This document shows positions 4,471 to 5,607 of a DNA stretch of 64,000 nucleotides, in pieces. The translations under genes and the position numbers were made by a program. Origin of the DNA: Symploca sp. SIO1C2 (GTDB lineage Bacteria; Cyanobacteriota; Cyanobacteriia; Cyanobacteriales; Coleofasciculaceae); the NCBI GenBank assembly GCA_010672925.1, contig JAAHFP010000026.1, positions 1-64,000 on the forward strand. The letters are read 5' to 3'. Positions within the stretch are counted from its first letter, which is position 1. Every line of letters begins with the position of its first letter. The notes beneath the pieces are model-generated. The model had not been told where the DNA came from and made no database searches. It saw only the letters and a list, made by a program, of their open reading frames with translations.

Positions 4471-5607
4471 TTAATTGCGTTTTGATCTCTTTCTAAAATG
4501 AAGCGATACCACTGTTAGCTCTTTTAACTCTCGTAAGGCATTTGGATATTTCCCATCTACAATTTCTGTTAAAGTACTGAAGTAACCTGGATAAACAAAA
4601 ACTGGAATATTCCTTCTTTTTAAGCAAGCAAAAATTGCAAATTCTTCCAAAAAATATTGGCTAGACTTGTCTATGTAATATTCCCATTGTTTCTCACTCA
4701 ACTGGGGTCGTCTTTTACGGTGATAATTCTCCCCAAATGCTCTTATAGAGGCTTTAAAAGAGATATCTTGCTCAAAAATTTCTTGCAATTTTGTGTAGTA
4801 TATCTGGTAATCAGGATAACTTTGTACTTCAGAGCAAAAAACAAAATTAAAGTTACATAAATGTTCAAATTTTTTAAATATATTTCTCTCCCTTGCTAAA
4901 AAAATAGACCCAAGAAATAAAGCTTTATCATGAGCTTCAATAGGGTCTAGTCCTTGAGTAGCTTCTAATGTAATCCTATGTATACTATCTCCGATTAACA
5001 CTAAGCAGGAAGGAAATCGTCTAGAGATCCAATCAAGGGATGCCATCAACTTTGGGCGAACAAAATTACTGTTCTCTAGGCTAACACCAAAAAAACAGCT
5101 TTCATGCTCTTCAAAATTTTCTCTATTGGACTGAGGGGATAAAAAATTTATCTTTGCTCTATATTTGGATGAAAGTTTAAAGTTAACTATATTAGCGTCG
5201 AAACTTTCGATTAATATAGAGGTTTTTATTTTAAGCAATATTCTCTGCTTTACATCAATCAAGAAGAAAACTTCTTCAACGACCGTTGCTAAATCTTGGT
5301 CTATCCAAATATTGGTAAGCACTGAATTGAAGAGAGAAACTTCTATATTGACATCTTTTATCAAGTCGATATGTTTAACCTTGAGCGCTTCCTTAAGATG
5401 ATTTTGATTAATATCATAACTTGCTGAAATAAATGCACAACAATACTTCCAGTCATCTATTTTAAAAACAGCAGCATTAGCAAGCTCCGTAGTAGAGGTG
5501 TTCACCATCTCTTCAAGTTGCACATCAGAGAAAGTTGATGAATACTGAACAATCTCGTGTTTAATATTGTTTGATTTAATAAATTCTATTATTTTAGTAT
5601 TGAGCAT
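4471..5607 (-). CDS. Cyclodipeptide synthase (CDPS)-like protein with a ~155-aa N-terminal extension. The gene is AT-rich
   Basis: FFGVSLENSNFVRPKLMASLDWISRRFPSCLVLIGDSIHRITL aligns with the AlbC catalytic region GISAGNSYFS...LLQWAGQRF...VYVDTHIDEML, following the pattern G[IV]SxxNSxF ... LxW ... RF ... D. Downstream Y/E/P positions are consistent with it. GC content is markedly lower than the flanking genes. Confidence 0.5.
   Translation of the reverse strand: MLNTKIIEFIKSNNIKHEIVQYSSTFSDVQLEEMVNTSTTELANAAVFKIDDWKYCCAFISASYDINQNHLKEALKVKHIDLIKDVNIEVSLFNSVLTNIWIDQDLATVVEEVFFLIDVKQRILLKIKTSILIESFDANIVNFKLSSKYRAKINFLSPQSNRENFEEHESCFFGVSLENSNFVRPKLMASLDWISRRFPSCLVLIGDSIHRITLEATQGLDPIEAHDKALFLGSIFLARERNIFKKFEHLCNFNFVFCSEVQSYPDYQIYYTKLQEIFEQDISFKASIRAFGENYHRKRRPQLSEKQWEYYIDKSSQYFLEEFAIFACLKRRNIPVFVYPGYFSTLTEIVDGKYPNALRELKELTVVSLHFRKRSKRN

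Follow-up and report, generated by a model that had tools for sequence, protein, structure and literature searches.

Cyclodipeptide synthases (CDPSs) are considered to be minimal enzymes: with a mass of about 30 kDa, they are in competition with EF-Tu for charged tRNAs. Structural work on the way in which they acquire two specific aminoacyl-tRNAs is ongoing. Members of the NYH subfamily have Tyr-His where those of the XYP subfamily have Tyr-Pro. Proteins of the YbaK/ProX/INS superfamily share an invariant catalytic lysine (K46 in H. influenzae YbaK, K279 in E. coli ProRS), and TerB proteins form a stress-associated family. Among XYP enzymes, SsBcmA, the cyclo(L-Ile-L-Leu) synthase of bicyclomycin biosynthesis, has a solved structure (PDB 9J61; PMC11580168). 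Its D161N variant gave a higher yield with the same specificity, and at position 204 the M204A variant was dead and the M204L variant active (PMC11580168). Gondry et al. found many cyanobacterial XYP CDPSs to be inactive in E. coli.

The gene described here lies on a 64-kb stretch of DNA (hereafter referred to as the window) from a MAG of the order Coleofasciculales, Symploca sp. SIO1C2; the host is not heterocystous, contrary to an earlier note on this DNA. Its product is predicted to be a CDPS fused to a degenerate YbaK-type editing domain. Neither a YbaK-like/CDPS fusion nor a TerB-CDPS pairing was described in the literature searched, which consisted mostly of papers available without subscription.

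The gene and its cyclodipeptide synthase domain

The open reading frame at 4471..5607 (− strand) is intact and complete, with an ATG start, and encodes a two-domain YbaK-like/cyclodipeptide synthase protein of 378 amino acids followed by a stop codon (NER23198.1). ATG codons occur only at residues 1, 34 and 188, so that a stand-alone CDPS retaining Ser176 could not be produced from any ATG start. The low GC content remarked upon in the earlier note is confirmed: 0.324 (GC3 0.28) for the gene versus 0.418 for the window (32% vs 42%), placing the gene in the lowest 1.4% of same-size segments. CDPS genes of this type have a low GC content in every cyanobacterial host examined. The gene may plausibly have been acquired horizontally. 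No convincing direct or inverted flanking repeats of a mobile island were detected around the locus. A search for a tRNA gene dedicated to the synthase found none in the whole window.

The gene is divergent from the MVP gene (5800–8442, + strand), as previously noted, and the 192-bp intergenic region between them (5608..5799; 29% GC) presumably contains the promoter. Promoter and terminator scans returned matches no commoner than in shuffled sequences. Downstream, between the convergent CDPS and TerB genes, there is a hairpin (4386..4420) with a perfect 16-bp stem and no T-tract, with minimum free energies of −23.2 kcal/mol for the + strand RNA and −14.9 kcal/mol for the − strand RNA. It is possibly a bidirectional terminator and was not picked up by the terminator scan.

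The C-terminal domain (amino acids 147–378; 4471..5169, − strand) scored above the curated cut-offs of both relevant profiles, with 39.2 bits for PF16715 (cut-off 27) and 116 bits for TIGR04539 (cut-off 45; amino acids 153–368), and its predicted structure has the Rossmann-type fold related to the catalytic domains of class Ic aminoacyl-tRNA synthetases. The CDPS identity proposed in the earlier note is thus borne out, and the Ser, Tyr, Glu and Tyr residues that it singled out for checking do align. The catalytic tetrad S37, Y178, E182 and Y202 of AlbC corresponds to S176, Y318, E322 and Y339; query numbers equal SsBcmA numbers plus 133. In the alignment, Ser176 (codon 5080..5082, − strand) matches Ser43 of SsBcmA, and the motif YFLEE (4642..4656, − strand) carries Tyr318 and Glu322, the counterparts of Y185 and E189. 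The segment Phe337-Val-Tyr339-Pro340 (4588..4599, − strand) contains the Tyr-Pro pair of the XYP subfamily, the X of which is Asn179, matching N46 of SsBcmA. Ser176, Asn179, Tyr318, Glu322, Tyr339 and Pro340 were invariant across 55 aligned homologues, and all six are identical in SsBcmA.

The P1 (Leu) and P2 (Ile/Val) pockets are nearly identical to those of SsBcmA, with 7/8 and 6/7 residues conserved, respectively (13/15 in all). The exceptions are D161, replaced by N294, and the P1 residue M204, replaced by F337; among the aligned homologues, this P1 change is confined to the lineage of the query. On the basis of these comparisons, the C-terminal 230 amino acids are predicted to constitute a genuine BcmA-type XYP cyclodipeptide synthase.

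The N-terminal YbaK-like domain and its fusion

The earlier note described an unexplained N-terminal extension of about 155 residues. The extension is real, with a length closer to 146 residues (amino acids 1–146; 5170..5607, − strand), is conserved at the protein level in 15 other proteins (16–40% identity) and can now be matched to a degenerate domain of the YbaK/ProX/INS (tRNA_edit-like) fold. The predicted structure places it in this superfamily. The query domain alone scored only 13.6 bits against PF04073, under the cut-off of 25.5, but a profile built from its family matched 3OP6 (8e-9) and, in library-wide searches, bona fide PF04073 proteins (1e-12 to 1e-15), with the INS domain as its second-best PDB sequence match. 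The domain is, as judged from these profile matches, probably a distant and divergent member of the PF04073 superfamily.

Three elements of editing proteins are altered. The catalytic lysine (LAK motif), unchanged in all 10 of the stand-alone homologues, is replaced by Asn44 in the alignment (codon 5476..5478, − strand). The G-x-x-x-P substrate loop (GAMPPFG in stand-alone homologues) is removed by a deletion of about 11 residues in every fusion of clade 1, to which the query belongs; in its place, according to the model and the alignment, the segment IEVSLFNSVLTNI (amino acids 88–100; 5308..5346, − strand) forms a short helix and a turn. The FNAG(S/T)H motif is also missing. The loop deletion probably ruins the pocket for aminoacyl-A76, so that binding of the acceptor end may be lost too. 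Despite this deletion, most of the non-cyanobacterial members of clade 1 retain a basic residue (Lys or Arg) where the catalytic lysine stands, which would be compatible with a contact kept with the 3' end of the tRNA.

With respect to charge, the two domains are opposites, with a net −6 and a pI of 5.0 for the acidic N-domain and a net +6 for the basic CDPS domain. Such acidity is unfavourable to RNA binding by the N-domain through charge; stand-alone YbaK-like proteins have pI values from 4.6 to 10, many of them being acidic, and charge was therefore rejected as uninformative about RNA binding.

The model of the full-length protein had a mean pLDDT of 94.8 and a pTM of 0.91, a value unattainable if only the 232-residue domain were well placed, suggesting that the two domains are fixed relative to each other. 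Only seven residues separate the predicted strands 139–141 and 149–157, one on each side of the domain boundary. The two domains are thus predicted to form one rigid body with no flexible linker.

The same architecture was found in at least 20 proteins (the query, the 15 homologues mentioned above, and P0160, P0165, P0234 and P0247), some of them encoded within full bicyclomycin-like clusters: P0007 and P0010 stand at the head of clusters containing the CDPS, five 2OG oxygenases, a P450 and an MFS gene, and TerB lies upstream of P0004, with a P450 of the BcmD type downstream of it. A second clade, from the Nostocales (Anabaena, Nostoc and Amazonocrinis), exceeded the cut-offs for both PF04073 (48.8–63 bits) and CDPS; its members keep a G-T-L-P-P loop and have Glu at the position of the catalytic lysine. 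The profile of clade-1 N-domains scored higher against stand-alone YbaK-like proteins (72 bits) than against the clade-2 domains (38 bits), which suggests that the fusion arose twice independently. The two fused clades were separate in a neighbour-joining tree of the CDPS domains, but this tree was midpoint-rooted with no support values and is given no weight here.

In a comparison with a twin protein 95% identical to the query, the N-domain had a dN/dS ratio of 0.39 and the CDPS domain one of 0.17, the N-domain being the faster-evolving of the two (90% identity, versus about 98% for the CDPS domain). Taken together, these sequence comparisons show the fusion to be recurrent and under purifying selection. 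A close relative from Caldora (P0006), 63% identical, has no N-domain, which makes this domain dispensable in at least one lineage; the same tree, midpoint-rooted and with no support values, suggests that its loss in Caldora was secondary.

Gene neighbourhood and the TerB partner

The convergent gene at 3832..4332 (+ strand) encodes a TerB-domain protein of 166 amino acids (NER23197.1; PF05099, 43 bits). This partner was absent from the earlier note. Orthologues with 57–77% identity adjoin CDPS genes at 10 further cyanobacterial loci, and TerB and CDPS are fused in one polypeptide at locus L027 (10980–12344), from a single MAG. The query gene is conserved beside an intact TerB in three Symploca MAGs and in further metagenome contigs; at the Moorea locus L062, TerB is a pseudogene, and the fused members within bcm-like clusters have no TerB. 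Gene order and orthology identify the TerB gene as a conserved partner of CDPS genes in cyanobacteria.

The 880-residue product of the divergently transcribed neighbour has strong Vault and MVP_shoulder Pfam matches. MVP was rejected as a functional partner: genomes with an MVP at least 90% identical have unrelated accessory genes upstream and no CDPS, and MVP is missing from the surroundings of other fused CDPSs. The two genes are neighbours by coincidence. Accessory genes of the NACHT, Uma2 and TA-like kinds surround the window locus and Moorea locus L062 and are also found in the MVP flanks of close relatives, and the clade-2 fusions adjoin metallophosphatase/SIR2-like and NACHT-WD40 genes.

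The window contains no bicyclomycin cluster of the usual composition (five 2OG/Fe(II) oxygenases, one P450, named BcmD, and usually also an exporter of the MFS type), and tblastn searches of the 64 kb with the L063 and L065 proteins as queries revealed no P450, 2OG or MFS remnants. The earlier statement that there is no adjacent tailoring enzyme therefore holds for the window, but not for relatives of the gene, which are accompanied by a P450 of the BcmD type or by the whole bcm-like set.

Interpretation and comparison with known systems

The best explanation of these data, to which we assign a probability of about 0.6, is a functional two-domain enzyme, predicted to comprise a BcmA-type CDPS and a YbaK-fold pseudo-editing domain devoid of editing motifs. 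The synthase would convert Leu-tRNA(Leu) and Ile- or Val-tRNA into cyclo(Leu-Ile)-type diketopiperazines by a ping-pong acyl-enzyme mechanism and, because no P450 or 2OG oxygenase lies nearby, the product would be left unoxidised in Symploca sp. SIO1C2. The N-domain would have lost deacylation and may have been retained to engage either an aminoacyl-tRNA synthetase or the substrate tRNA itself, at its acceptor end or on its body. It may help the synthase to capture two aminoacyl-tRNAs against EF-Tu, or gate the access of the synthase to them, and TerB may cooperate with the synthase by regulating it or providing a scaffold.

An N-domain with a regulatory or structural role unrelated to tRNA, such as auto-inhibition by covering the basic tRNA-binding face, oligomerisation or docking of TerB, appears doubtful. 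The opposite charges of the two domains (−6 vs +6), their predicted rigid packing and the loss of the editing motifs would suit such an appendage, and a conserved partner such as TerB must dock somewhere. However, a fold that handles aminoacyl-tRNAs was apparently recruited twice to an enzyme that uses them, which is hard to credit to chance, and docking of TerB is at odds with the fused members of bcm-like clusters that have none.

It is distinctly unlikely that the CDPS-TerB pair serves in stress response or defence instead of a secondary-metabolite pathway, draining or sensing aminoacyl-tRNA and yielding the cyclodipeptide as a signal or mere by-product. The substrate pockets are strictly conserved with those of a bona fide antibiotic-pathway enzyme, and the BcmD-type P450 at sister loci implies that the product matters. 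TerB-CDPS pairs with no tailoring genes are, nevertheless, widespread in filamentous cyanobacteria, the TerB family is stress-associated, and CDPS loci have the NACHT, Uma2, TA-like, metallophosphatase/SIR2-like and NACHT-WD40 neighbours listed above; adjacency to NACHT and Uma2 genes is weak evidence, as both are ubiquitous in cyanobacterial genomes.

We consider it improbable that the N-domain retains trans-editing deacylase activity, proofreading the substrate pool (non-cognate aminoacyl-tRNAs or stalled acyl intermediates) and thereby sharpening product specificity. The fold and the end-to-end homology to PF04073 editing proteins, the G-T-L-P-P loop of clade 2 and the basic residue (Lys or Arg) that several clade-1 members have at the site of the catalytic lysine are what such an activity would predict, but clade 2 has Glu for the lysine, the loop is deleted throughout clade 1, and the query has Asn44, no FNAG(S/T)H motif and a subthreshold score (13.6 bits vs 25.5).

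There is little to commend the view of the gene as a decaying orphan, a non-functional remnant left after the loss of tailoring genes from a horizontally acquired bcm-like cluster. The AT-rich composition, the absence of P450 and 2OG genes within 64 kb, the lineage-only M204F change in P1 and the TerB pseudogene in Moorea L062 could be read in this way, but the frame is intact with all catalytic residues present, the dN/dS ratios are 0.17 (CDPS domain) and 0.39 (N-domain), and the gene persists, its TerB neighbour intact, in three Symploca MAGs and other metagenome contigs. Finally, known CDPSs have 230–300 amino acids and Gondry et al. stressed start-codon errors, but an extension produced by a wrong start codon or by read-through from an upstream gene is very unlikely given its protein-level conservation in 15 homologues (16–40% identity), its pLDDT above 90 and fold match, and the lack of an ATG between residues 34 and 188.

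Beyond the functional two-domain enzyme favoured here, and far more tentatively, the YbaK-fold domain might be a dedicated, non-hydrolytic module for aminoacyl-tRNA capture or hand-off, recruited on two independent occasions, and the first proofreading fold known to feed a natural-product enzyme; with TerB, it might form an unrecognised cyanobacterial CDPS system, which may exist to regulate or respond to the pool of aminoacyl-tRNA and not to make an antibiotic. The recurrent, selected fusion to a domain that ancestrally grips the 3' end of aminoacyl-tRNA, inactivated differently in the two clades, provides a natural experiment on CDPS substrate acquisition, and the domain may prove to be a module that can be transferred to other CDPSs to engineer their efficiency or specificity. 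Because complete bicyclomycin-like clusters of uncultured low-GC organisms begin with the fused form, it is relevant to a clinically used antibiotic scaffold. TerB pairing and fusion provide an unannotated protein partner for a family believed to act alone, and filamentous marine cyanobacteria have at least three CDPS lineages, partly missed by standard Pfam annotation.

The query shares its catalytic and XYP residues with SsBcmA, but adds the 146-residue YbaK-like domain, has Phe for Met204 in P1, lacks the bcmB-G tailoring genes in the window, and occurs in a cyanobacterial host with a TerB-domain partner gene. Relative to the YbaK/ProX/ProRS-INS proteins (PF04073; H. influenzae YbaK 1DBU, lpg1207 3OP6 and ProXp-ala 5VXB), the N-domain has the same fold, a collinear end-to-end alignment and shared core positions (D51, D103 and the hydrophobic strands); it differs in the Asn for Lys, the deleted loop, the lost FNAG(S/T)H motif and a score below the Pfam gathering threshold. 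Unlike free-standing YbaK or the ProRS insertion, it is covalently joined to an enzyme that consumes aminoacyl-tRNA.

The Nostocales tRNA_edit-CDPS proteins (Anabaena sp. WFMT L039, Nostoc paludosum L051 and P0295; 383–384 amino acids) have the same N-to-C order and a CDPS domain from the same broad BcmA-related group. They are only 32–35% identical to the query, however, with no TerB neighbour and another gene context, and their N-domains, unlike that of the query, exceed the Pfam cut-off, keep the G-T-L-P-P loop and have Glu for Lys. The multi-domain CDPSs of Gondry et al. likewise have the synthase inside a larger polypeptide, but there the added domains lie at the C-terminus and, where identified, serve tailoring or export, whereas the partner here is N-terminal and comes from translation quality control. 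By analogy, bacterial ProRS with an INS domain (PDB 5ZNJ) also unites a catalytic domain acting on the tRNA 3' end and a YbaK fold in one chain; ProRS belongs to the class II synthetases and carries its INS domain as an inserted, active hydrolase, whereas the query is a class-I-like CDPS with a motif-less N-terminal copy.

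The fused gene and its synthase domain

The gene that the earlier note placed at 4471-5607 lies on the - strand and forms one intact reading frame of 378 amino acids with an ATG start; GenBank already labels its product (NER23198.1) "tRNA-dependent cyclodipeptide synthase". The proposed cyclodipeptide synthase (CDPS) identity, with catalytic Ser, Tyr, Glu and Tyr, was upheld by profile scores above the cut-offs and by residue alignment: residues 153-368 matched TIGR04539 (116 bits; cut-off 45) and residues 162-323 matched PF16715 (39.2 bits; cut-off 27). [quoted passage not shown] Query residue numbers equal SsBcmA numbers (PMC11580168) plus 133; S43, N46, Y185, E189, Y206 and P207 of SsBcmA thus correspond to S176, N179, Y318, E322, Y339 and P340, which are invariant across 55 homologues. 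The CDPS part is an ordinary, previously annotated member of the XYP/BcmA group.

The query retains seven of the eight P1 (Leu) pocket residues of SsBcmA and six of the seven P2 residues, the exceptions being M204, replaced by F337, and D161, replaced by N294. The former change is restricted, among the aligned homologues, to this Symploca lineage; the D161N substitution in SsBcmA increases yield with the same specificity (PMC11580168). Because the two pockets are nearly identical to those of SsBcmA, our best prediction for the product is the cyclo(Leu-Ile/Val) type, with the M204F substitution in P1 as a caveat.

The low GC content of the gene reported earlier was also confirmed (0.324, GC3 0.28, versus 0.418 for the whole window); it ranks among the lowest 1.4% of segments of its size. 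AT-richness is equal in its two halves, and the sole other stretch of the window with matching composition (GC 0.31) lies at ~32900-34400, inside the ORF at 32069-34414 (-). CDPS genes had a GC content of 0.31-0.35, versus 0.40-0.44 for their contigs, at all the cyanobacterial loci checked except Okeania L020. Patchy distribution and variable flanks fit an accessory gene, possibly horizontally acquired; no island boundaries around the gene were found in the window.

The N-terminal YbaK-like domain

The N-terminal extension beyond the CDPS, likewise described in the earlier note, is homologous to extensions in 15 other proteins. Residues 1-146 alone gave weak matches only (TIGR00011 YbaK_EbsC, E 0.03; PDB 3OP6, E 0.2) and scored 13.6 bits on PF04073, under the cut-off of 25.5. 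A profile built from the 16 extensions matched 3OP6 (Legionella lpg1207, YbaK-like) with an E value of 8e-9 and, with one of 1e-5, the INS editing domain found in a prolyl-tRNA synthetase (5ZNJ). Searched against 1.84 billion representative proteins, it retrieved, outside the fused family, about 200 proteins, mostly of 150-160 aa and matching end to end; the five stand-alone or otherwise-fused matches scanned with Pfam scored 82-100 bits on PF04073. An AlphaFold2 model of the query from a 55-sequence alignment had a mean pLDDT of 94.8 and a pTM of 0.91, and in a Foldseek search with this full-length model the N-domain matched 1VKI, 3OP6 and ProX 8HUZ (E ~1e-6, probability 1.0). The domain aligns collinearly with ten stand-alone homologues, from the first helix through the last strand. 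The LAK motif has Asn44 in place of its invariant Lys, the G-A-M-P-P-F-G (G-x-x-x-P) loop is absent through a deletion of ~11 residues, and unrelated residues occupy the position of the FNAG(S/T)H motif of active enzymes. Because two defining catalytic features fail despite fold and descent, we regard the N-domain as a degenerate pseudo-editing domain, a superfamily member by fold and descent.

Between residues 34 and 188 the ORF lacks any ATG, so an ATG-started CDPS domain retaining Ser176 must include most of the N-domain. Comparison with a homologue of 95% identity from a different metagenome (L071) showed 18 non-synonymous and 11 synonymous changes in the N-domain, a dN/dS of 0.39, and a dN/dS of 0.17 in the CDPS domain; both are under purifying selection, with weaker constraint on the N-domain. 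In the predicted model, seven residues separate the last N-domain strand (139-141) from the first CDPS strand (149-157), and the whole-chain pTM would imply a confidently predicted interdomain arrangement and a rigid fusion.

Another Pfam-scanned protein, P0172 (~305 aa), has a domain of the same lpg1207-like YbaK subfamily fused to a SnoaL-like polyketide-cyclase domain, and P0179 and P0268 share its length and its N-terminal match. These would provide another link between the YbaK editing fold and secondary-metabolism-type domains.

Recurrence of the fusion and gene neighbourhood

The fusions fall into two groups. Clade 1 contains the query, P0002 from Moorea sp. SIOASIH, P0160, P0165, P0234 and P0247, together with the metagenomic members P0003-5, P0007-12, P0014, P0015, P0025 and P0063. 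Clade 2 contains proteins from Anabaena sp. WFMT, Nostoc paludosum, N. parmelioides, Nostoc sp. TH1S01, Amazonocrinis and a Leptolyngbyaceae MAG, as well as P0295. The host had been called heterocystous, wrongly: Symploca belongs to Coleofasciculales, outside the heterocyst-forming Nostocales. Clade-2 proteins are only 32-35% identical to the query, score above the cut-offs for both PF04073 (48.8-63 bits) and CDPS, and keep a G-T-L/I-P-P loop, with Glu instead of the catalytic Lys. In clade 1, this position is Lys or Arg in most non-cyanobacterial members and Asn or His in cyanobacterial ones. Two independent fusions seem likely from these sequences, because the clade-1 profile prefers stand-alone YbaK-like proteins (72 bits) to clade-2 domains (38 bits) and the clades separate on a rough neighbour-joining tree of the CDPS domain. 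On this rough tree, the non-fused Caldora protein P0006 (63% identical) falls among fused cyanobacterial CDPSs, which suggests secondary loss of the N-domain.

Two clade-1 proteins, P0007 and P0010, stand first in full bicyclomycin-like clusters (L065:3411-10812 and L068:655-9157, on metagenomic contigs of 30-37% GC) in the order CDPS, three 2OG oxygenases, P450, two 2OG oxygenases and MFS exporter. A related sequence, P0012, was found among transcriptomes of marine eukaryotes (the MMETSP set). P0004 is flanked by TerB on its upstream side and by a P450 (~510 aa) downstream; this cyanobacterial P450, 44-51% identical to those of bicyclomycin-like clusters of Streptomyces and others, is a BcmD orthologue. 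No homologue of the bcm-set P450, 2OG oxygenase or MFS protein was detected anywhere in the 64-kb window, consistent with the earlier statement that no tailoring P450 or oxidase is adjacent, and the window contains no tRNA gene.

Upstream of the Nostocales fusions of clade 2 are genes for a protein of 720 aa, judged by eye to be a metallophosphatase that ends in a SIR2-like region, and for one of 1185-1312 aa that looks by eye like P-loop/NACHT-WD40; a conserved hydrophobic ORF (166-173 aa) lies 3', its L039 copy, the only one scanned, having no Pfam match (L039:4140-9895, 11438-11959; L051:3779-9906, 11298-11798). The neighbourhood resembles a defence island.

Convergent with the Symploca CDPS gene is that of a 166-aa TerB-domain protein (3832-4332, +; PF05099, 43 bits). 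Orthologues (57-77% identity) directly adjoin BcmA-like CDPS genes at ten further, (presumed) cyanobacterial loci, including those of Caldora, of four Okeania genomes, of a Prochloraceae MAG, of a Cyanobacteriota MAG and of Moorea SIOASIH, whose TerB gene is split and hence a pseudogene. The ~40 loci from actinobacteria and proteobacteria contain no such orthologue, and neither do those of clade 2. Filamentous marine cyanobacteria commonly carry members of the TerB family. Moorena, Trichodesmium and Okeania each have a TerB of 161 aa and, directly after it, a 293-299-aa protein, identified here as a CDPS (TIGR04539, 59-66 bits; ~35% identity to the query), with no Pfam match on record for those of Moorena and Trichodesmium. 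The Prochloraceae MAG combines both in one 454-aa protein (L027:10980-12344; 33.9 bits for TerB and 50.7 bits for the CDPS part, each exceeding its cut-off); TerB-CDPS neighbours lie at L076:6001-7546, L078:4742-6331 and L056:7315-9005. Moorea L062 and Moorena L076 are syntenic, with the YbaK-fused CDPS, inverted, at L062 where L076 has the 293-aa CDPS. In filamentous cyanobacteria generally, CDPS genes thus have TerB as a conserved neighbour, a connection for which no publication was found in the literature searched.

The CDPS gene is, as reported, divergent from that of an 880-aa major vault protein (MVP) homologue (5800-8442, +; Pfam scores of 213 bits for Vault repeats and 182 bits for MVP_shoulder), called "colicin uptake protein" in GenBank. 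Several MAGs of Symploca and Caldora have MVPs at least 90% identical to it, and the flanks upstream of these differ, carrying NNH1, Uma2, DUF6887 or TumE genes instead of CDPS. The MVP-CDPS link was rejected as incidental, given these variable flanks and the other fused CDPSs without an MVP neighbour. Just 3' of MVP (8686-9877, +) lie, by eye, a DUF433-like small ORF and a probable Uma2-family gene; Pfam-annotated Uma2 genes also flank the fused CDPS of Moorea L062. At 916-2160 (+), a 174-aa P-loop fragment (NACHT-like, by eye) and a 234-aa leucine-rich-repeat ORF, separated by 15 bp, are probably a single disrupted NACHT-LRR gene. The AT-rich, ORF-free stretch at 3386-3559 may represent a small repeat element: it contains nested inverted repeats with arms of 40 nt, and a palindromic unit of 28 nt (TTAGTGGGGGCTTGTATCCACCACTAAT) is present twice.

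Proposed working and comparison with known synthases

The synthase would convert Leu-tRNA(Leu) and Ile- or Val-tRNA into a cIL-type diketopiperazine by a ping-pong mechanism, the standard one for CDPSs (PMC11580168), and the product would undergo no further oxidation in this genome. TerB may serve as a regulator or scaffold for the synthase. The N-domain would no longer deacylate; its retained role would be to engage the tRNA or a synthetase, in capture or hand-off, or else to gate access. We tentatively rank engagement of tRNA or an aminoacyl-tRNA synthetase first (probability about 0.4), arguing against a simple acceptor-end clamp, as the N-domain is acidic, has lost the aminoacyl-A76 loop and is dispensable in Caldora. 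A regulatory or structural role is a distinctly less probable second, and residual editing, for which the YbaK-fold domain lacks the hydrolytic motifs, is very improbable.

The multi-domain CDPSs described to date have C-terminal fusions only, to P450, methyltransferase, ABC-transporter or a Legionellaceae domain of unknown function (PMC5816076). An editing-domain fusion is unmentioned in a 2026 review on aminoacyl-tRNA-dependent natural-product enzymes, and no description of a CDPS fused to an editing domain was found in the literature searched. For these reasons, the fusion of a YbaK-like domain to a CDPS would count as new as an architecture, of relevance to specialists in tRNA-dependent biosynthesis, the CDPS itself belonging to a known group and its annotation having been public beforehand.
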